Positions 5,652 to 38,585 of a stretch of DNA of 64,000 nucleotides are shown piece by piece. The DNA lies in NCBI GenBank assembly GCA_022969815.1, contig GCA_022969815.1_4535.1; one strand, 5' to 3'. Origin of the DNA: Escherichia coli (GTDB taxonomy: Bacteria; Pseudomonadota; Gammaproteobacteria; Enterobacterales; Enterobacteriaceae). Both the position numbers and the translations under genes were made by a program. Numbering within the stretch: position 1 is the first letter of the stretch; each line of letters begins with the position of its first letter. The notes below the pieces were generated by a model. That model was not told the DNA's origin. It saw only the letters and a program-made list of their open reading frames with translations, and ran no database searches.

Positions 5652-6008
5652 ATGAGCAGTCTTGATCATAACATTTGTCACCAACCTCTCACCTGGATTG
5701 GTGAGGGTCATTATGCGCAACGTGTTATCGTCTGTGCTGCGAATAAGTATATTCTGAATAATGGTGAAGAGTTAATTATCCCTTGCGTTCGACATGCAAA
5801 TCCTGTACTATATGCACAGTTAAGCGTGTTGAAAGAAGCAGGTGCGATCAGCAAAACTTTGTGCACGCCAGATAATCAAGGCTTTATCGATCAGTATTAC
5901 AATTGGTGGAGTCGTGAGGATGCTTACATCATCGCGGAAAATGCTGACCAGATTGACCATGAGCGTAATGGTCACGACCATGAACTATTTAGCGAGGGAT
6001 TATACTAA
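5652..6008 (+). CDS. hypothetical protein; start at internal ATG with AAGGAGA SD
   Basis: ORF track 5607..6008; upstream part overlaps previous small ORF. Confidence 0.5.
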   Translation: MSSLDHNICHQPLTWIGEGHYAQRVIVCAANKYILNNGEELIIPCVRHANPVLYAQLSVLKEAGAISKTLCTPDNQGFIDQYYNWWSREDAYIIAENADQIDHERNGHDHELFSEGLY

Positions 6009-6553
6009 TGTTTATTACAAGCGATTTGCATTTTATGCACAAACGTATTCGAGAGTTTGCTCCTGAATATCGTCCGTGGGAAGATATGGACCACATGACA
6101 GAAGCTCTGATTGAAGCATGGAACAAATGTGCTACTACTCCTGGTGTTAAGATGTGGCATTTGGGCGACTTCTGTTTCGGGACTGAAGAAGATACCCGTA
6201 AGATTGCTTCCCGTCTCCAAGGAGATATCACTTATCTTGTTGGGAACCATGATTACAGCAAGCACCGAGAAGTGCTTGCAGAGTATGGCGAAGTGGTGTA
6301 TTATGACGAAGTGAAATACCAGAAGCTGTTCTTCGTCTTAAGTCATTACCCTATTGCCTCCTGGAACAAACAGGGTCGCGGTAGCATAATGCTCCACGGA
6401 CATTCTCACGGATCTTTCCCTGATGAAGCCTACGGTAAGATGCTTGACGTTGGTTGGGATGCACATGGCAAGATCCTGCACTTTGATGAAGTTATTGAAA
6501 TGATGGAAAAACGAGAAGTCATCACTGTAGACCATCATAAAATTATCCGATAG
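6008..6553 (+). CDS. calcineurin-like metallophosphoesterase
   Basis: phosphoesterase motif series DLHF..H, GDFCFG, GNHDY, HGHSH in translation. Confidence 0.6.
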   Translation: MFITSDLHFMHKRIREFAPEYRPWEDMDHMTEALIEAWNKCATTPGVKMWHLGDFCFGTEEDTRKIASRLQGDITYLVGNHDYSKHREVLAEYGEVVYYDEVKYQKLFFVLSHYPIASWNKQGRGSIMLHGHSHGSFPDEAYGKMLDVGWDAHGKILHFDEVIEMMEKREVITVDHHKIIR

Positions 6554-6561
6554 GAGGAACA

Positions 6562-6888
6562 ATGCAAATTTATACAGATGATCGTAAGTACGAAACGATT
6601 CTTGACGAAGATACTGGACGAATCACAATCTTGCGCCACGGGGAAGAGTGGCGAGATGAAACTGGGGATAATTATATCTTATCTCTGATTCATCTTGTTG
6701 AACAGATGCGTGACGACTACACCGAACTTCATTACGAAAATGAATTGAATAAGGTGAAGTTTGAAAACGAGATTGAAGAGAAAAACTTTGAAATCCTACA
6801 GCTTAAAGAAGAAAATCTTCGTCTTGAAGAAGAGATTGATGCTCTCCAGGAAGAGATTTACGAACTCAACAACGAACTGAATGCTTAA
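6562..6888 (+). CDS. hypothetical coiled-coil protein
   Basis: C-terminal heptad-like ENLRLEEEIDALQEEIYELNNEL. Confidence 0.5.
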   Translation: MQIYTDDRKYETILDEDTGRITILRHGEEWRDETGDNYILSLIHLVEQMRDDYTELHYENELNKVKFENEIEEKNFEILQLKEENLRLEEEIDALQEEIYELNNELNA

Positions 6889-7475: not shown

Positions 7476-7699
7476 TGGCAACAACATTCTATTTTGAAGG
7501 TAGTGAGAAAAAGACTTCCATTACCTTTCAAAGAAACACACCAGCAGAAGATTTCTTATGGATGATAATCGATCATCTGAGAAGCGAAGGTATTCACCAT
7601 ATAGACGAGTATTTCGCAGAGTCTACAGACTGGCAAAACGTTGTTATGGAAGATGTTATTTTCGAACTACACCATATTATTACGGAGGAAGGAATTTGA
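7475..7699 (+). CDS. hypothetical protein (74 aa)
   Basis: ATG overlapping upstream stop (TAATG). Confidence 0.45.
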   Translation: MATTFYFEGSEKKTSITFQRNTPAEDFLWMIIDHLRSEGIHHIDEYFAESTDWQNVVMEDVIFELHHIITEEGI

Positions 7700-8811
7700 A
7701 ACAGACGAATCAAACACTTTACGGTAAAGACTCAAATGGCAAACTGAAGCAATGGACTGTTTTCACAGACGGTGCAACAGTTACTGTAGCTCACGGTAAA
7801 GTTGGTGGAAAGATTACACAAAAATCATACGAAGCGGAAGCTAAAAATACTGGACGTGCAAATGCAACCACTCCAGAAGAACAAGCAGAAGCTGAAGCTT
7901 TTGCCAAGTGGACAAAACAACTGAAAAATGGTTATTATAAAACTATGGAAGAGGCGGAGAACCACGTCCCATCCACACCTATGAAATGCCAGGACTATAA
8001 AGATTTTGCGCATAAGGTGGTCTTCCCTGGATATGCACAATACAAACTGAATGGCTTACGTTCAATGATCAACATGAAGGGCGAATGTTTGTCTAAAGCT
8101 GGAGAAGTTTACAAACTCCCTCCGCACTGGCAAGGTATTCCAAACTTCATCAGCGAAGTTGTTGGTCATCCTCTGGATGGGGAAGTGTTCGCTGGTCTTG
8201 GTGTTCTTAGTTTGCAACAGATTAATAGTGCATGGAAAAAGCACAATGAGAACACGCCGCTCCTGAACTATTATGTTTATGATGTTCCTGTGGCAGATAT
8301 GCCATTTGAGAAGCGTGTTGAAGTATTGGCGGCTCTTAAGGCTGTAGCTGAAGAGAGTGGTCTGGATGAACTGATCTGTGTAGTACATACAGAGTATATT
8401 GAAAATCAAGAACAGTTGGATGCATTTTATGCTAAAGCTTTGCTTGAAAAAGCTGAAGGTATTGTGTATCGTAATGCTCATGGTGTCTATGAGTTTGATA
8501 AACGTTCCTATGACGTGATCAAACGAAAACCGCGCCAGACTTTGGAAGTTAAAGTTATTTCTATGCGTTCTGATAAAAATAACGATGGGGTGTTGACAGG
8601 TGAGATGGAGAATGGTAAACTTGTTGAGTTCTTGATGCGAAAAGATGCTCACGAAACTATCAACTACCGTAAAGCAGAAAATGCCGAAACTTTGATTGAT
8701 CAGTTTGTTGAGATTGAGTATGAAGAATTTTCTGACGAAGGTATCCCAACTAAACCAGTCGGTGTACGTCTTCGTAAAATGATCCCAGGGACTTGGGAGC
8801 CAGCAGAATAA
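7696..8811 (+). CDS. ATP-dependent DNA ligase-like nucleotidyltransferase (TTG start overlapping upstream stop)
   Basis: motif I KLNGLR (KxDG-type active-site lysine), DGEV, EGIVYR (motif V-like), KRK; GGAGGAAGG SD before TTG. Confidence 0.6.
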   Translation: MKQTNQTLYGKDSNGKLKQWTVFTDGATVTVAHGKVGGKITQKSYEAEAKNTGRANATTPEEQAEAEAFAKWTKQLKNGYYKTMEEAENHVPSTPMKCQDYKDFAHKVVFPGYAQYKLNGLRSMINMKGECLSKAGEVYKLPPHWQGIPNFISEVVGHPLDGEVFAGLGVLSLQQINSAWKKHNENTPLLNYYVYDVPVADMPFEKRVEVLAALKAVAEESGLDELICVVHTEYIENQEQLDAFYAKALLEKAEGIVYRNAHGVYEFDKRSYDVIKRKPRQTLEVKVISMRSDKNNDGVLTGEMENGKLVEFLMRKDAHETINYRKAENAETLIDQFVEIEYEEFSDEGIPTKPVGVRLRKMIPGTWEPAE

Positions 8812-9221: not shown

Positions 9222-9950
9222 ATGATCGAGAACTTTTTTAAAGAGATTAAGGTAGATGTGGACTTCTATAAGAAAGCAGCTAAACATGTAATCGATTGGA
9301 ATGCAAAAGCGCGTGGCGGAGAACAGCCGGAATTTGACCAGGCAATGTTTGTTTCCCAAATCGGGTTTGTTCGTGAAGAACTGAAAGAGTATGAAGAAGC
9401 CGCTAAAACTAATGATCACGTTGAACTCCTGGATGCAGCCGCCGATGTATTCGTTGTTTCCAGTTACCTGGTGTACATGTTCTTTGGTGAAGAAGCAACT
9501 CTGAAGTTCCTTGAGAATCAGGTTGGTACTGTCTTCACAGAAACAATCTACACCGATTTCGACAACATGGAAGCTACCTTTACTGATCCTGTTCAGATGG
9601 CAGTATTGAGTGCTGGTATTATGAACCTTGCGCGTGATACGCTGGTGCGTTCTGTCTATGCAGACAAAAAGATTATGAAAGAAGTTCTTGACAGTAATGA
9701 TTCTAAGTACCCTACTAAGAAGCAACTGCTGGCTGTATGGAATACTTCCGATATTGATCTTGCAATTTCACAAGAATGCGCAGCGATTGAAGAGCGTAAT
9801 GCCAATCGTCCTGAAGGTGCTTACACTGGCGTACATGCCACGTACAATGAAAAACAGAAAGTTTATGTGTTCTTTGATGATAAAGGTAAGATCATGAAAC
9901 CTTCTACCTTTGTTAAACCTGATATTGCAAAAATCATTGCTAAGAAATAA
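9222..9950 (+). CDS. MazG-like nucleoside triphosphate pyrophosphohydrolase (tentative)
   Basis: EELKEYEEA ... ELLDAAADV acidic helix pair typical of MazG/HisE fold. Confidence 0.45.
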   Translation: MIENFFKEIKVDVDFYKKAAKHVIDWNAKARGGEQPEFDQAMFVSQIGFVREELKEYEEAAKTNDHVELLDAAADVFVVSSYLVYMFFGEEATLKFLENQVGTVFTETIYTDFDNMEATFTDPVQMAVLSAGIMNLARDTLVRSVYADKKIMKEVLDSNDSKYPTKKQLLAVWNTSDIDLAISQECAAIEERNANRPEGAYTGVHATYNEKQKVYVFFDDKGKIMKPSTFVKPDIAKIIAKK

Positions 9951-21995: not shown

Positions 21996-22193
21996 ATGAA
22001 AGACCAAATGATTAATGGACCTCGTGTAACAGTCAGTCCTAAAACTTTTGCATCTCTTCTGGACGACACTGGTGAGGTTTATACTTACACAAGAGATTCA
22101 CTGCCTCTGCCTGAAAGTGCACAGGGTTCACGTTCGCTTTTTTATAAAGGTGTTCTTTTTACGGAAGCAAAAGAAGACAAGGAGACTAAATGA
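21996..22193 (+). CDS. hypothetical protein (65 aa)
   Basis: ORF with AAGGAGA SD. Confidence 0.45.
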   Translation: MKDQMINGPRVTVSPKTFASLLDDTGEVYTYTRDSLPLPESAQGSRSLFYKGVLFTEAKEDKETK

Positions 22194-23182
22194 GATACCT
22201 GGTAACAGGTGGTCTTGGTTTCATTGGGAGCGCCGTAGTGCGCTCTCTTTGTCAAGATCCTAATAACGAAGTTTTTGTTATTGATAAAATGGGCTACGCA
22301 GCCGATATTGAAAATGTAGGGGATATCACTCACGCCAAACTAAGTATGACAGATTTGGCAAACGAAGCACAGGTCAAAAGTTTAGTGGTAGAATGCAACC
22401 CTGATTTCATCATTCATTTAGCGGCAGAGAGTCATGTGGACAACTCTATCAAGAATCCACGAGCTTTCATCGACTCCAATATCATCGGTACATATAATCT
22501 GTTAGAAGCTGCAAGGCTTCTTCCTAAGAACAAGCTGAAGATGTTTGTACACGTCTCTACAGACGAAGTGTACGGTGATATGGAGGACTCTGGTGCTCCA
22601 TTTACCGAAGAGACAGCTTATGCTCCTTCAAGCCCATACAGCGCGTCTAAGGCGGCATCTGATCACCTTGTCAAAGCTTGGCACCGTACTTACGATTTGC
22701 CTGTAGTGATAACCAACTGTTCCAATAACTTTGGGCCTTACCAACACCCTGAAAAATTGATTCCGAAAGTGATCACGAACATCTTGACAAGCAAAGAAAT
22801 TCCAGTGTACGGTAAAGGCGATCAAGTAAGAGATTGGCTTTTTGTTGAGGACCATGCGCGAGCTATTCTTCAAGTAGCTTCTGGCGGCGAACCTGGACAA
22901 ACTTACAACGTAGGCACACGTAATCCTAAAACCAATATGGAGATCATCTATATGATTTGTGATTACATGGATGCCGTACACCCGCAAAGTGGAACCTACC
23001 CGTCTTCGAGTTTAATAACTTTTGTTGAAGATCGTAAAGGACATGACTTGCATTATGAAATCAACCCTGCTAAGATTGAATCTGAACTGGGTTGGAGTGC
23101 AAACTCCACATTTGAACAAGACCTTTACTCTACGATAGAGTGGTATTTAAACAACCCTCAATGGTGGAGAGAAAAGATTTAA
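22190..23182 (+). CDS. rmlB: dTDP-glucose 4,6-dehydratase
   Basis: TGGLGFIGS Rossmann motif, YSASKAASD (YxxxK), [14 protein letters not shown] segment characteristic of RmlB. Confidence 0.8.
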
Positions 23183-23190
23183 GGAGGGTT

Positions 23191-24069
23191 ATGAAAGGTA
23201 TTATTTTGGCGGGAGGAAGTGGAACCCGCCTACACCCTGTAACACGCAGTGTGAGCAAGCAATTGCTCCCTGTGTATGACAAACCTATGATTTATTATCC
23301 TTTATCAGTCTTGATGTTGGCAGATATTAAGGATATCTTAATCATCACAACCCCAGGCGATCAGGAAGATTTTGAGTATCTTCTTGGAGATGGATCTATG
23401 TTTGGGATAAAAATCACTTACGCAATGCAGTCTGAACCACGAGGTCTTGCAGATGCTTTCATCATCGGTAAAGATTTTATTGAGGAAGATTCCGTTGCCC
23501 TTATTTTAGGGGATAACTTGTTCTTCGGACAAAGTTTCGGAAAACTTCTTATCCAAGCCAGCGAAATGGTGGATGTTTGGGGTGGAGCTTGTATCTTCGG
23601 GTATCTGGTGAAAGATCCTGAACGATTCGGTGTTGTTGAGTTCGGAAGTAATCGCCAAGCTATCTCTATTGAAGAGAAACCGGAACATCCTAAATCAGAC
23701 TATGCCGTCACGGGTTTGTATTTCTATGACAACTCTGTTGTTCAACGTGCATTGGAAGTAACTCCTTCTGATCGTGGAGAACTGGAGATCACAGATATCA
23801 ATCGCAGCTACCTCGAAGACAGAAAGTTACAAGTTGAAGTTCTTGGAAGAGGATTCACTTGGCTGGATACAGGGACACACGCCAGTCTAATGGAAGCAGG
23901 TCAATTCGTGCAGACTATTGAGAACTGCCAAGGATTGAAGATTGCGTGCCTGGAAGAGATTGCTTTCAAAAAAGGGTGGATTTCTTTAGAGACTTTGGTG
24001 TATCATGGCAACTCATTGAAGAAAACAGAGTACGGGCAATATCTGTTAAAATTAGCGGAGGGTAAATGA
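23191..24069 (+). CDS. rmlA: glucose-1-phosphate thymidylyltransferase
   Basis: [19 protein letters not shown]-terminus; AAGGAGGG SD; ORF track start 23140 is upstream. Confidence 0.85.
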
Positions 24070-24626
24070 AAATAAAAGAATTAAGTATTCCTGGTCTGGT
24101 TGTCTTTAAACCTCAAGTTTACAAAGATGATCGTGGTTCCTTCACGGAGACGTTTAACGAGAAGATTTACGAAGAGGTTATTGGCAAACAAACGTTTGTT
24201 CAGGATAACCATTCATTCTCTACTTTAGGTGTTCTTCGCGGAATGCACTTTCAAGTAAATAACCCGCAAGGTAAGCTTGTACGTTGCACACGAGGTGAAG
24301 TTTTTGACGTGGCTGTAGATCTTCGTGAAGGTAGTCCAACCTTCGGACAATGGGAAGGTGTGATTCTTAGTGGGTGTAACAATAAACAGTTGTGGATTCC
24401 ACCTGGCTTTGCACATGGTTTTGTTGTAACCTCTTATGAAGCCAACTTTGAATACAAGTGCACCAACTACTACGATCCGGCATCTGAACGTAGTTTGTTG
24501 TGGAACGATCCTACTGTGAATATTGATTGGGGTTTTGATATGATTTTCAATGATGAGAATTTTGTACCTATCATTTCGGAAAAGGATGCACAAGCTAAAA
24601 CACTGAAGGAGCTTATGGAATCATGA
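24066..24626 (+). CDS. rmlC: dTDP-4-dehydrorhamnose 3,5-epimerase
   Basis: 186 aa cupin-like; [11 protein letters not shown] and HFQ...Q..KLV motifs; position between rmlA and rmlD. Confidence 0.75.
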
Positions 24627-25465
24627 AAACATATTTAGTATTGGGTGGTAATGGTCAATTAGGTCAGGCACTGCGTAAAGTGGTGCCGGAGAATGTGACT
24701 TTGGTGTATCCAGAAAAGCGTGTAGATATCACCAGTTTTGAAGCTGTAAGAAAAGCGATCATGGACACCCCAAATATTAACGGTGTTATCAACTGTGCGG
24801 CATACACTGCGGTGGACAAAGCAGAGACAGATGTTGATGCAGCTATGGCTGTAAATTTACACGGGGCAGCTAATATTGCTGCCTTCTGTAAGGCTTGGGA
24901 TATTGACATGGTGCATATTTCTACTGACTATGTGTTCAACAGCGATAAACCGTTGTTCCATCAGGATGAACCCAACCCTATCAATGTTTACGGGTTATCT
25001 AAAAGTTTGGGTGAAGCTGCTGTTCGTGGTATCTACCATAAAGCTTTTATTATCCGCACGGCTTCTGTGTATAGCGAGTTTGGTAACAACTTCCTGAAGA
25101 CTATGGTATCTCGTTACAACGATGGTCAAAGAGACTTCTCGGTAGTTGCAGATCAAACATCTCGACCAACTTATGCCCCAGATTTGGCTAAGATGATTTT
25201 CCAAGTGTTGGAAACAGGATATAACACCCGTACTTTGCATTACGCTGGGAACATCACTGTTTCGTGGCACCAGTTCGCAAAAATGATATTGACACGTATG
25301 CCTGAATCTGTTATTATACACCCGACCTCTGCTGCAACCTATAATTCGGCAGCGATGCGACCAGCAAAGTCTATACTAATTACGTCTGGTTGGAACGAAC
25401 CTTCAAGCGTCAGACAAGGTATTGAAGAATCTTTAGCAGTATTACTTAATAAGGAGAGAGCATGA
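24623..25465 (+). CDS. rmlD: dTDP-4-dehydrorhamnose reductase
   Basis: LVLGGNGQLG Rossmann motif, YGLSKSLGE (YxxxK), 280 aa, last gene of rml set. Confidence 0.7.
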   Translation: MKTYLVLGGNGQLGQALRKVVPENVTLVYPEKRVDITSFEAVRKAIMDTPNINGVINCAAYTAVDKAETDVDAAMAVNLHGAANIAAFCKAWDIDMVHISTDYVFNSDKPLFHQDEPNPINVYGLSKSLGEAAVRGIYHKAFIIRTASVYSEFGNNFLKTMVSRYNDGQRDFSVVADQTSRPTYAPDLAKMIFQVLETGYNTRTLHYAGNITVSWHQFAKMILTRMPESVIIHPTSAATYNSAAMRPAKSILITSGWNEPSSVRQGIEESLAVLLNKERA

Positions 25466-36228: not shown

Positions 36229-36893
36229 TGACCCATTTAAAACCTTTTGGTGGAAAACCTATTGTGGCGTATCAAGTAGATCGTGATGATTGGGAAGGCA
36301 GTGTAGTTGTCTTTGGTAATCATTTCTTTGCTGTGCGTCGTAAAGGCGCAAGTATGTTGGATTGTGAGGAGGAGTATTGTCATGTCTCCCGCGCCAAAGA
36401 ATTCGACCAGTATGCAGAAAAAGGTTTTGTGCCTGTCAAAGCTTTACTGGAGGCAGGATGGTGGATACACTCTGCTCATGATGGTGTTAGACTTGACGAG
36501 TCTGTAGATAATCTTGAGGCAGATTTTGACGAATGGGAAGATGGCATGTATGTTGAGGAGGATCTTGTATTTTCCCTTGACGAGAAAAGTGTGTGGAAGA
36601 ACTGGGAAGAAATGGAACGTCACGCGCATTTTATCAACAACGCTTTGATTCGTAAAGCCTGGTTCACGGAGGCGGTGAAGATAGCGTATCCGCAATTCAC
36701 CTTTACAGAGGTTTGGGGCGGTCCCCACCACATCACCCATACAGCATTTTTCGACTTCCCTGGTTCACGTTACAAAGGTAATGTAATGTGGGACTGGGAT
36801 GAGAATGAAGTACCATCTGTTCAAGACTTTCGTTGTTATGTTTGCCAAGGCGATCAAGAAGCCCTTGACAAATACCTGCAAAGTCTGGTATAG
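36225..36893 (+). CDS. hypothetical protein (222 aa)
   Basis: ORF overlapping upstream stop; last gene before terminator. Confidence 0.5.
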   Translation: MMTHLKPFGGKPIVAYQVDRDDWEGSVVVFGNHFFAVRRKGASMLDCEEEYCHVSRAKEFDQYAEKGFVPVKALLEAGWWIHSAHDGVRLDESVDNLEADFDEWEDGMYVEEDLVFSLDEKSVWKNWEEMERHAHFINNALIRKAWFTEAVKIAYPQFTFTEVWGGPHHITHTAFFDFPGSRYKGNVMWDWDENEVPSVQDFRCYVCQGDQEALDKYLQSLV

Positions 36894-36910
36894 TGCAAGC
36901 AACTGAACAA

Positions 36911-36938
36911 AGCCTCCTTTTCAGGGGGCTTTTCTTTT
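36911..36938 (+). terminator. intrinsic terminator
   Basis: AGCCTCC-ttttca-GGGGGCT hairpin plus TTTCTTTTAT. Confidence 0.65.
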
Positions 36939-36950
36939 ATGGGAGGAAAT

Positions 36951-37445
36951 ATGTTTCAAGTAGAAATTCATGTGCACGACAGTTGTTCAAATTGCGAAAC
37001 TTGTGGTTACAATAGTTCAACCATGATCACTATTAGCGGAGACTTAGGACATGCTAAGTTTGGCGAAGTCGCAAGCTGCTTCGGCGGAGAGGATGCAGAT
37101 TGGCATGATATTGCTTTGTGGCTATGCGGAAGACTGAATGTAAATTGTAAAGACTTCCCTGAACTGTTGAGCCGAAATCTTGTCGATAGTCGGGAACAAG
37201 CCTACAATATTTATGCCGCTTCTGTTTATGTTGATCATAAATGGGTAGAAGATGAAGAAGCTGAACGTTTGCTACGCCTCTACTATGAAGCAGAGGAAGC
37301 TTATGATAACTATTACAGCATGTCCAACATCCTGCGTTTGTTTGCAGAGTTTGATATTTACTTTGAAGTGAGTTATTCTGAAGATGAAGTGTATGATTTT
37401 GATGACGATGATTACGAGGAGGATGAAGAATGCCAAGACGATTAA
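36951..37445 (+). CDS. Cys-cluster protein with strongly acidic C-terminal tail (partner of Sir2-like gene)
   Basis: HDSCSNCETCGY near N-terminus; C-terminal DEVYDFDDDDYEEDEECQDD; GGGAGGAAA SD. Confidence 0.5.
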   Translation: MFQVEIHVHDSCSNCETCGYNSSTMITISGDLGHAKFGEVASCFGGEDADWHDIALWLCGRLNVNCKDFPELLSRNLVDSREQAYNIYAASVYVDHKWVEDEEAERLLRLYYEAEEAYDNYYSMSNILRLFAEFDIYFEVSYSEDEVYDFDDDDYEEDEECQDD

Positions 37446-38233
37446 TAGTGATCAGCGGCGCTGGTCTAAGCGCCGATAGCGGTGTACAAACATTCCGTAC
37501 AGAAACAGAGAGTGGAAAAGCCTTATGGGACGAGTACGATTTAGAGGAGGTTTGTAATATTGGGGCATTCCAGGCAGGTTATCGTAGACGTACATGTCCC
37601 GATTTACCTGTTATCGGAGGTGAGGATGAGGAAGGATACAACCTCTACAACAAGACCCATGATTTCTATAACAAGCGTCGTATAGAGTTGGATAATATAG
37701 ATCCAAACGCTGCACATCGTCTGATTGCTCGTTTATACTCAGAGTATGGCGCTGATCGTATTTTAAACATCACCACTAACGTGGACGATCTTTTGGAACG
37801 TGCTGGTGTTGTTCACGAAGATGTTCTGCATGTGCATGGCTACCTACCAGAAATTGTAGTGGATCGGAAGTTTATTAAAGAAATCGGTTATGCAAGTGTG
37901 GATGTGGATAAGTACGATTACGTGAAACCTAACGTTGTCTTCTTCGGGGAATCTGCTCCGCTGTACACAGAGATGTACCATATGCTCGATAATCTCACAT
38001 CTCAGGATATGGTGATTGTTGTAGGTTGCTCTAATCAAGTGATCAACTTCAACTGGGAGTTGTTCCCAGCCCTCAATACAGGAACAAAGATGGTCGTAGT
38101 TAATCCTGGGGTTAATTACGAAGAAACACTTCTCTATGAAGATCGTGGAGTTTTTGTTTACCGAGAAAAAGCTGCAACAGCCTTCAGTAATGAAGGTTTC
38201 ATTAAAATGATCGAAGACCACTTAAACAAATAA
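37430..38233 (+). CDS. Sir2-family NAD-dependent deacylase / ADP-ribosyltransferase-like protein
   Basis: GAGLSADSGVQTFR (GAGxS..SGI..FR), ITTNVDDL (TQNxD-like), HVHG (catalytic His), VVGCSNQV (G-T/S-S-like) in canonical order. Confidence 0.7.
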   Translation: MPRRLIVISGAGLSADSGVQTFRTETESGKALWDEYDLEEVCNIGAFQAGYRRRTCPDLPVIGGEDEEGYNLYNKTHDFYNKRRIELDNIDPNAAHRLIARLYSEYGADRILNITTNVDDLLERAGVVHEDVLHVHGYLPEIVVDRKFIKEIGYASVDVDKYDYVKPNVVFFGESAPLYTEMYHMLDNLTSQDMVIVVGCSNQVINFNWELFPALNTGTKMVVVNPGVNYEETLLYEDRGVFVYREKAATAFSNEGFIKMIEDHLNK

Positions 38234-38240
38234 ACCAACC

Positions 38241-38266
38241 AAGGGGCTACGGCCCCTTTCTTATTA
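38241..38266 (+). terminator. intrinsic terminator
   Basis: AAGGGGC-tacg-GCCCCTT hairpin plus TCTTATT. Confidence 0.7.
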
Positions 38267-38276
38267 GGAGATTACT

Positions 38277-38549
38277 ATGCAACAAGAAACTTTCGATTTT
38301 TATCTCGCCAATTATGTCTACTACTTCTCTAATGGTACACAGAAAGGGGAAGGCAACCTTTATCTGGCTACCAACACTGGAGCAGGTGTTCGTAAAGCCA
38401 ATATTGATTTAGCAAGAGAAACAGTTCGTTCTGGACTGGAAGAGACGCTTGAAACTCCGGTTGTTGTGGTTATACAAACTATCAGTTACCTTGCAACCTG
38501 TACTAAAGAGGATTTTGAGGCTCCTCAAACACAATCTAACGAAGCATAA
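38277..38549 (+). CDS. hypothetical protein (90 aa), last plus-strand gene
   Basis: ORF with AGGAGA SD. Confidence 0.5.
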   Translation: MQQETFDFYLANYVYYFSNGTQKGEGNLYLATNTGAGVRKANIDLARETVRSGLEETLETPVVVVIQTISYLATCTKEDFEAPQTQSNEA

Positions 38550-38552
38550 AAG

Positions 38553-38585
38553 AAAGGCACCCAAGTGGGTGCCTTTTCTATTTTA
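38553..38585. terminator. bidirectional intrinsic terminator at convergence of plus and minus blocks
   Basis: AAAGGCACCC-aagt-GGGTGCCTTTT: A-run upstream and T-run downstream of the hairpin. Confidence 0.65.

Follow-up and report, generated by a model that had tools for sequence, protein, structure and literature searches.

Organization of the locus

A 64,000-nucleotide (nt) stretch of DNA (contig GCA_022969815.1_4535.1 of the Escherichia coli assembly GCA_022969815.1; the whole stretch is referred to here as the window) was analyzed at a pair of overlapping plus-strand genes, the second of which encodes a Sir2-family enzyme (sirtuin) and the first a small acidic protein, termed here the partner. 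The window was assigned to a phAPEC8-like coliphage of the genus Phapecoctavirus; at the gene pair it is 99.4% identical to phiWec188 and phiWec190, both Escherichia phages, and 77-95% identical to other Phapecoctavirus genomes. The partner gene (36951-37445) encodes a 164-amino-acid (aa) protein of the family phrog_9509 and is preceded by the Shine-Dalgarno (SD) sequence GGAGG at 36942-36946; its start was assigned to the ATG at 36951, with an upstream in-frame ATG at 36939 being missing from the relatives. The Sir2 gene (37430-38233) encodes a 267-aa class III sirtuin without the zinc-ribbon cysteines, and its own GGAGG (37418-37422), read directly from the sequence, is embedded in the codons of the acidic tail of the partner, 7 nt before the ATG at 37430. 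The two genes overlap by 16 nt (37430-37445), where the final ECQDD and stop codon of the partner are an out-of-frame reading of the conserved MPRRL of Sir2. An earlier reading of the window (the original prediction) had described two such overlapping genes between two terminators, and the open reading frames (ORFs) and both hairpins were confirmed. In the records of the relatives, the Sir2 gene is labeled either "cobB / NAD-dependent protein deacylase" (cobB in phiWec188) or "Sir2-like protein" (Sir2-like in phAPEC8, ESCO5, and the phi92-like phages, among others), and the partner gene is labeled hypothetical; the phAPEC8 record also remarks on the similarity of its Sir2 to those of rV5 and PVP-SE1.

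The pair was found to have its own promoter. A near-consensus, extended -10 promoter of the sigma70 type (36865-36894, plus strand; TTGACA-N18-TGgTATAGT) is located within the 3′ end of the upstream gene, which encodes a 222-aa protein. This promoter matches the hexamers at 11 of 12 positions and includes the TG motif, with the extended -10 pattern detected at 4 sites in the window compared with 0.05 expected. The -35 and extended -10 elements were invariant in seven relatives, among them Tr1, in which the sequence around these elements has otherwise diverged. After a gap of about 15 nt, the promoter is followed by a first hairpin and U-tract (36909-36941, plus strand), comprising a hairpin at 36909-36932 with a 10-bp stem, a U-rich tail, and a folding energy of -15 kcal/mol. 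The structure of this hairpin is kept, with differing stem sequence, in three lineages (including Justusliebigvirus and Tr1). Since the promoter is upstream of the hairpin, its transcripts must traverse this terminator-like element, which spans about +8 to +31. Toward read-through from upstream genes, the first hairpin acts as an intrinsic terminator, and for transcripts that start from the 36865 promoter it is the 5′ leader hairpin; in this second role it might limit expression, serve as an attenuator, or stabilize the 5′ end. Among eight promoter-like sites inspected in the window, this was the only site at which a promoter was followed by a stable hairpin and U-tract.

Downstream of the pair, a second hairpin terminator (38241-38266, plus strand; stem 38241-38258, 7 bp, -14.6 kcal/mol) was identified that has a weaker, interrupted U-tract and coincides with a terminator annotated at the same place in the record of phage Paula. 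This hairpin is probably leaky towards a third small gene (38277-38549, plus strand), which encodes a 90-aa protein of phrog_15991, is syntenic after Sir2 in all relatives, and may be reached by read-through; a Pfam search of its product gave no match. A strong bidirectional terminator (38552-38577; 11-bp stem, -18.9 kcal/mol, z = -4.9) is positioned where plus- and minus-strand transcription converge. Terminator-like sites numbered 12 in the 5 kb scanned compared with 3.7 expected, and an Rfam search of the module identified no RNA family.

The downstream gene encodes a class III sirtuin without a zinc module

The Sir2 motif series was found in the canonical order noted by the original prediction: GAGLSADSGVQTFR (residues 10-23), NVDDL (117-121), HVHG (134-137), and VVGCSNQV (197-204), with the catalytic Asn, Asp, and His intact. 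The protein matched Pfam SIR2 (PF02146) with a score of 75.4 bits (cut-off, 24; E = 7e-21) and phrog_2162 with E = 7e-100. Its best sequence match in the PDB was E. coli CobB (1s5p, E = 1.6e-17), followed by archaeal Sir2Af1/Af2 and SIRT5. The AF2 model, which was of high quality (predicted local distance difference test [pLDDT] 90; predicted template modeling [pTM] score 0.87), likewise best matched the CobB fold when searched with Foldseek (1s5p, template modeling [TM] score 0.73 for the query and 0.86 for the target, E = 1e-15), followed by Sir2Af1 and SIRT5. The protein scored far below the cut-offs of the NCBIfam CobB equivalogs NF040867 (84.9 bits vs 320) and NF001753 (101.4 bits vs 243); thus, the "cobB" label in phiWec188 is an over-annotation.

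Conservation was examined by aligning Sir2 with 29 diverse homologues, down to 53% identity; the AF2 model, too, was built on 29 homologues. Invariant positions included G10-A11-G12, F22-R23, Y80, R83-R84, N117-V118-D119, H136-G137, F171-F172-x-E174 (FFGE, 171-174), G199-x-S201 (GCS), and N225, with the catalytic H136 encoded by the codon at 37835-37837. The class III Tyr-x-x-Arg signature is found in the sequence FYNKRR, in which Y80 and R83 are invariant and which aligns with FYNARR of CobB. These invariant motifs indicate that the NAD (nicotinamide adenine dinucleotide) pocket, the Asn/Asp of the nicotinamide "C pocket," the catalytic His, and the anion-binding Tyr-x-x-Arg are all present. 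By contrast, cysteines were absent from between H136 and K166, the segment of the CobB zinc ligands, in all 29 homologues, and this segment was modeled as a metal-free beta-hairpin (strands 137-144 and 148-151, pLDDT of about 90). The small domain also has a variable 24-residue insert (residues 49-72). Thus, the enzyme is a classical class III (CobB/SIRT5-type) sirtuin that has no zinc module: it shares with CobB and SIRT5 the Rossmann GAGxS, FR, N-x-D, catalytic His, FGE, GxS, and Tyr-x-x-Arg elements, and differs from CobB in its missing zinc cysteines, the replacement of the Gln of TQNID by Thr, the 24-residue insert, and its sub-equivalog scores.

The original prediction had also placed the enzyme in the context of the NAD-depleting Sir2 effectors of bacterial defense, and this framing was not supported. 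Neither Pfam SIR2_2 nor any PADLOC Sir2 model was matched, with the only PADLOC matches being PDC-S65 (E = 0.002 and 0.043) and MTase_II (E = 0.039). The defense SIR2 NADases (ThsA, DSR1/2, SIR2-HerA, and SPARSA) are related to the phage enzyme through distant Sir2 superfamily kinship and the use of NAD+ as substrate. They differ in that the phage gene (i) is carried by a lytic phage; (ii) has none of the sensor or partner domains (SLOG, HerA, and pAgo) and is flanked by hypothetical genes; and (iii) encodes a protein that keeps the deacylase-type His and YxxR. The enzyme is therefore not a defense-type SIR2, and NAD depletion as a toxin is unlikely to be its function.

The partner is an acidic protein with a conserved cysteine knuckle

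Sequence comparison of the partner gave no match in Pfam, NCBIfam, PADLOC, or the PDB, and Pfam scanning of 24 members of its family revealed nothing recurrent. The family, phrog_9509, was found to be small and restricted to phages, with 9 clusters recovered by word-indexed search, 24 by profile search, and 33 by exhaustive profile search of 1.84 billion representatives. One of the 33 clusters, P0155 (900 aa), was rejected as a false positive, as it is a repeat protein matching only the Cys pattern. Across 24 partner sequences, C15, C18, G19, G38, A41, C43, L62, and P70 were invariant and E16, S22, and D101 nearly so, whereas C12, C59, C66, and H9 were not conserved. The N-terminal Cys cluster of the original prediction was, therefore, present as C12, C15, and C18 but conserved in a different form, as a CxxC...C pattern of C15-x-x-C18 and C43, with no invariant fourth ligand among the 24 sequences. 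A three-Cys metal site is plausible.

The AF2 model of the partner (pLDDT 88, pTM 0.77) consists of a globular region (residues 1-145) in which a long beta-hairpin (2-15/19-30) bears the CxxCG knuckle at its tip and is followed by short strands up to C43, then by four helices, and finally by a closing strand (136-144). The tail (residues 146-164; 37386-37442) is predicted to be disordered from residue 151, with the last 14 residues at pLDDT <50. No fold match to any annotated protein was detected in the PDB or BFVD. The protein has 41 Asp/Glu compared with 9 Lys/Arg residues, for a net charge of about -32 and an isoelectric point (pI) of 4.05, and an acidic/aromatic C-terminus is kept in distant members of the family. 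The polyacidic tail that had first drawn attention was borne out in composition, with 13 of 19 residues Asp or Glu and aromatic residues interspersed; however, the SD and MPRRL codons of Sir2 fall within it, such that the tail is in part constrained by the downstream gene.

Extreme acidity is familiar among phage proteins, including the DNA mimics Ocr and ArdA and the acidic C-terminal tails of the single-stranded DNA-binding (SSB)-type proteins T4 gp32 and T7 gp2.5. We take the partner to resemble these proteins in its extreme negative charge and its disordered acidic/aromatic tail, and its possible Cys3 metal site is, in our view, reminiscent of the zinc subdomain of T4 gp32. Similarity to any of them was not detectable in sequence or fold. 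The suggestion of a DNA-mimic-like protein is, thus, compatible with the charge of the partner but found no structural match. Overall, the partner is a lineage-specific, fast-evolving acidic protein that probably binds metal.

The cysteines of the partner also raise the possibility of a split sirtuin, in which the zinc-ribbon module missing from the enzyme through loss would be provided in trans by the Cys cluster of the partner. This arrangement is suggested by the absence from Sir2 of cysteines between HVHG and KPNVVFFGE, where the zinc ligands of CobB are found, and by the CxxC...C of the partner. However, the zinc-less state is common to the whole phage family, most members of which have no partner; the zinc-ligand segment folds confidently as a metal-free beta-hairpin; and the partner is a 145-residue alpha/beta domain rather than a zinc ribbon insert. 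We consider this explanation very improbable, and it was rejected on these three grounds.

Phage relatives of the sirtuin and the predicted RNA-repair role

The enzyme belongs to the T5.102/rV5/phi92 phage sirtuin family (phrog_2162), which has long been annotated. Members were detected by tblastn in 981 phage records, including T5-like, rV5-like, Mydo-like, Justusliebigvirus, KVP40-like Vibrio, and several jumbo phages, and the window protein was 50-60% identical to the T5-like, rV5-like (HdK5), and Mydo proteins. The T5.102, rV5, phi92 gp038, and KVP40-type sirtuins are, thus, its direct homologues, from which the present locus differs by the pairing with phrog_9509, the promoter of its own, and a lineage without the RNA ligase and kinase (see below). 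The literature found on phage sirtuins, including the phAPEC8 and T5 Sir2 proteins, consisted of annotations, one in silico and transcript study of Vibrio phages, and the prediction of Iyer et al. In the Vibrio phage study of 2016, a CobB-based model was presented in which the zinc ligands were missing, and protein deacetylation was proposed (PMC5107563). Iyer, Burroughs, Anantharaman, and Aravind (2022) analyzed the phage sirtuins of V5 (rV5), Mydo, SP15, and others and predicted KptA-like removal of RNA 2′-phosphates from gene neighborhoods rich in RNA ligase, cREC, kinase, 2H, HAD, and MazG (PMC9503650).

If this prediction extends to the window, the enzyme would be an RNA-repair sirtuin of the KptA/Tpt1-like type that transfers adenosine diphosphate ribose (ADP-ribose) onto the RNA 2′-phosphate left once cREC/2H opens a 2′,3′-cyclic phosphate, with ADP-ribose 1′′,2′′-cyclic phosphate released; the partner would then have no bearing on the reaction or would assist it by binding RNA ends. 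The published prediction was made for exactly this clade (PMC9503650), and the neighborhoods on which it draws were confirmed: in HdK5 (an rV5-like Vequintavirus) and Mydo, Sir2 is encoded between RNA ligase/cREC/kinase genes and a DNA ligase gene. Homologues of this cluster are also retained in the window, about 27-32 kb upstream of Sir2. These genes encode (i) a protein with a cREC domain, the cyclic-phosphate processing receiver domain (PF20274; 5140-5496), with 55-61% identity to the gene between the RNA ligase and Sir2 genes of rV5-like phages and Mydo; (ii) a metallophosphoesterase (6008-6553); (iii) an ATP-dependent DNA ligase (7558-8811); and (iv) a MazG-like protein (9222-9950). In addition, the invariant Y-x-x-R anion site could hold a phosphate, and some jumbo-phage homologues of the partner are encoded a few kb from RNA ligase, 2H, and Thg1 genes.

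Other features of the window and its relatives argue against this role. In the Stephanstirmvirinae, Sir2 is separated by about 30 kb from the RNA-repair cluster, and in T5-like contexts no RNA ligase gene adjoins Sir2. Moreover, in ESCO37 and other Stephanstirmvirinae the phosphoesterase gene is separated from the following gene by rnlA and a gene for a P-loop kinase, whereas in the window these two genes are cleanly deleted at 6553-6562 when compared with Phapecoctavirus ESCO37 (locus L025, 4992-6329); the genes around them, for cREC, the metallophosphoesterase, DNA ligase, MazG, and RdgC, are still present. Neither RnlA nor the kinase (PNK) was found by tblastn elsewhere in phiWec188, the closest complete genome. 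Despite this loss, Sir2 is intact at all of its invariant positions, which argues against an obligate dependence on RNA repair in this lineage, although it does not disprove the idea for the family as a whole. The gene context also lies outside the three published neighborhood types, with Sir2 having its own promoter, being paired with phrog_9509, and being detached from the cREC/phosphoesterase/ligase cluster. The prediction is computational, and we regard RNA repair as a rather unlikely role for the enzyme of this locus. As a separate observation, a 98-aa ORF labeled as a second "Sir2 (NAD-dependent deacetylase)" was noted in the T5-like phage chee24 just downstream of the real Sir2 gene (locus L005, 5192-5488); as it has no Sir2 profile match, its annotation is probably wrong.

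Linkage of the partner to the sirtuin and proposed function

The partner gene was found directly before Sir2 in all 12 Stephanstirmvirinae-type loci examined (phiWec188, the closest relative; phAPEC8, ESCO5, anhysbys, alia, Paula, and Tr1; and five IMG/VR contigs), even where the partner proteins were only 36-37% identical. This adjacency spans two genera plus Tr1. Within the adjacency, the two genes differ in their rate of change, with the partner 37% and Sir2 72% identical between genera. The gene trees were also found to disagree: the anhysbys partner is 84% identical to that of phAPEC8 and 38% to that of alia, while the anhysbys Sir2 is 95% identical to that of alia and 73% to that of phAPEC8, such that very different partner types serve essentially the same enzyme. 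Pairwise identities gave a different tree for each gene of the five-gene block 35545-38549 (DNA methyltransferase, 222-aa protein, partner, Sir2, and 90-aa protein), which indicates frequent recombination at gene boundaries between Phapecoctavirus and Justusliebigvirus (window and loci L002, L003, and L010-L012). The partner of several Justusliebigvirus genomes stops about 8 residues short (…SSWDDDY), with no overlap between its gene and Sir2 (L012, 1438-1968; L016 and L017, about 5884-6465); thus, the extreme acidic end and the gene overlap are dispensable.

On balance, and by a modest degree, we favor the explanation that the pair is a self-contained bicistronic operon of Phapecoctavirus, transcribed by the host RNA polymerase, that encodes a catalytically competent CobB/SIRT5-like sirtuin together with a partner that is either an accessory or an independent protein. 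The family, motifs, and fold of the enzyme, the anatomy of the operon, and the distribution of the two genes were taken from the analyses above, and it is from these that activity, substrate, timing, and contact between the partner and Sir2 are proposed. The partner is outside the catalytic core; it is either an accessory particular to this lineage or an early protein of independent function that shares the transcript. A functional link between the partner and the enzyme is, in our estimate, tentative, and functional coupling is best described as plausible but unproven.

Several observations weigh against this explanation. With regard to the enzyme, (i) across the whole phage clade, Thr (T116) replaces the Gln of the canonical TQNID, and so the chemistry could differ from that of CobB; (ii) experimental or biochemical characterization of any member of the phage family was not found in the literature searched; and (iii) the RNA ligase/cREC/kinase cluster of the rV5-like phages and Mydo favors the RNA-repair function for the family as a whole. 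With regard to the pairing, (i) the partner was detected in 142 phage records compared with 981 for the sirtuin, about 85% of which are, therefore, without a partner; (ii) the Sir2 loci of T5-like phages, rV5-like phages, and Mydo have no homologous or analogous Cys/acidic neighbor; (iii) eight jumbo-phage loci and three more metagenomic contigs encode the partner family with no Sir2 within 4-10 kb; and (iv) the alleles of the two genes have been reshuffled independently by recombination. As a two-gene system, the module of the original prediction is only weakly supported: the adjacency is constant within one subfamily, and elsewhere relatives of the partner are unlinked to Sir2.

In the jumbo phages, the neighbors of the partner include genes for thymidine kinase, the Dps-like DUF5856, RNA ligase/2H/Thg1, or RecA/exonuclease/helicase. 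Across the loci L013, L014, L029, L031, L008, and L009, the partner recurs 1-3 kb upstream of thymidine kinase and beside the Dps-like DUF5856, with genes for an Rnl-type RNA ligase, 2H phosphoesterase, Thg1, and RlaP within about 5-9 kb. The idea that the gene beside the jumbo-phage partner (RaK2 ORF017, XbC2_165) is a cryptic Sir2 was dismissed on the results of BLASTP and of a hidden Markov model scan of all loci for Sir2.

Two other explanations of the pairing were weighed against this background. One is that the genes form a regulated pair akin to a toxin and antitoxin, in which Sir2 would harm the host by consuming NAD+ or as an ADP-ribosyltransferase, and the acidic protein would restrain or time it; the acidic tail could, for example, act as a pseudosubstrate in the Y-x-x-R/basic pocket. 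The overlap of a small upstream gene with an enzyme gene and the strict adjacency of the two are consistent with such a pair, as are the disordered acidic/aromatic tail opposite an invariant anion-binding YxxRR and the unusual leader, in which a promoter followed by a hairpin suggests tight control of dosage. The arrangement is also like that of SirTM and the phage sirtuin-Macro toxin-antitoxin pairs in being a two-gene operon of a sirtuin and a second small protein, but the partner here has neither a Macro domain nor any other Pfam match, and the sirtuin is CobB-like. Against such a pair, most family members (those of T5, rV5, Mydo, Vibrio, and jumbo phages) have neither a partner nor an analogous neighbor, a 37%-identical partner type is found beside a 95%-identical Sir2, the tail end and overlap are missing from some Justusliebigvirus loci, and no defense or NADase Sir2 model is matched. 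We consider a toxin-antitoxin-like pair improbable, and grade in much the same way the narrower proposal that the partner is a dedicated regulatory subunit, namely a regulator, pseudosubstrate, or targeting factor that binds metal, bears an acidic tail, and has its dosage set by the promoter-hairpin leader.

Alternatively, the two genes may be unrelated neighbors, with the partner an independent early protein on a shared transcript, such as a nucleic-acid mimic, an anti-restriction factor, or a replication accessory with an SSB-like tail. The charge of about -32 would suit such a protein, the jumbo-phage members have other neighbors than Sir2, the genes flanking the pair in the window include DNA methyltransferases, and the partner diverges much faster than Sir2 and recombines independently of it. 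However, proteins encoded near the partner are acidic as well (pI 4.4-4.8), and the fact that the two genes are always adjacent and translationally coupled in this subfamily would have to be merely historical. This explanation is possible but, in our judgment, doubtful.

Returning to the favored explanation, the enzyme is most likely active and would use NAD+ in the standard two-step chemistry of sirtuins. A substrate oxygen would attack C1′′ of NAD+ with loss of nicotinamide, after which the His-activated 2′′-OH would close a 1′′,2′′-cyclic intermediate; the net result would be that a negatively charged group is stripped from a macromolecule. The invariant Tyr-x-x-Arg suggests that the substrate is probably negatively charged beside its reactive oxygen. 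An acidic or ordinary acyl-lysine of host or phage proteins is a reasonable though tentative choice of preferred substrate, consistent with a CobB-like deacylation during host takeover; the RNA 2′-phosphate of the published alternative is a less likely one, and ADP-ribosyl transfer or other reactions account for the remaining probability. The partner may serve the sirtuin as an accessory (regulator, pseudosubstrate, or targeting factor) or may be an independent early factor directed at the host that shares the transcription unit.

Overall, the locus presents a known enzyme family in an undescribed, subfamily-restricted gene pairing under its own promoter. A described phage system with this pair was not found in the literature searched, in agreement with the original prediction. 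The pair is of modest promise as a lead and does not amount to a new Sir2 system of the defense style. About a thousand sequenced phages encode sirtuins of this family, for which the sole mechanistic proposal, RNA 2′-phosphate removal, is computational. A natural genome that has the sirtuin and is without the RNA ligase and kinase, thus, provides a handle on whether the role of the enzyme depends on RNA ligation. Similarly, the translationally coupled, lineage-specific partner, for which a confident model of a novel fold is available, may be useful as bait for the target or regulation of the enzyme. If the partner proves unrelated, the outcome would be improved annotation, both for a known phage gene and for an uncharacterized family of acidic Cys-knuckle proteins. 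If instead it were a dedicated subunit, the pair would be the first two-component viral sirtuin system, with a CobB-like enzyme redirected to a specific host target or defense pathway.

Other features of the window

A Pfam scan of the upstream gene, the partner, and the downstream gene identified no domain. Two genes upstream of the methyltransferase gene, the window encodes a 314-aa protein (34208-35152) with DUF7277 and DUF7275 (E = 1.7e-76). Four genes at about 22190-25465 are syntenic with phAPEC8 gp166-169, which are labeled as nucleotide-sugar epimerases, glucose-1-phosphate thymidylyltransferase, and dTDP-4-dehydrorhamnose 3,5-epimerase, corresponding to a lytic-phage pathway of the dTDP-rhamnose type. 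The minus strand at 1-1176 bears a cluster of five or more tRNA genes, of which one is cut by the window edge.

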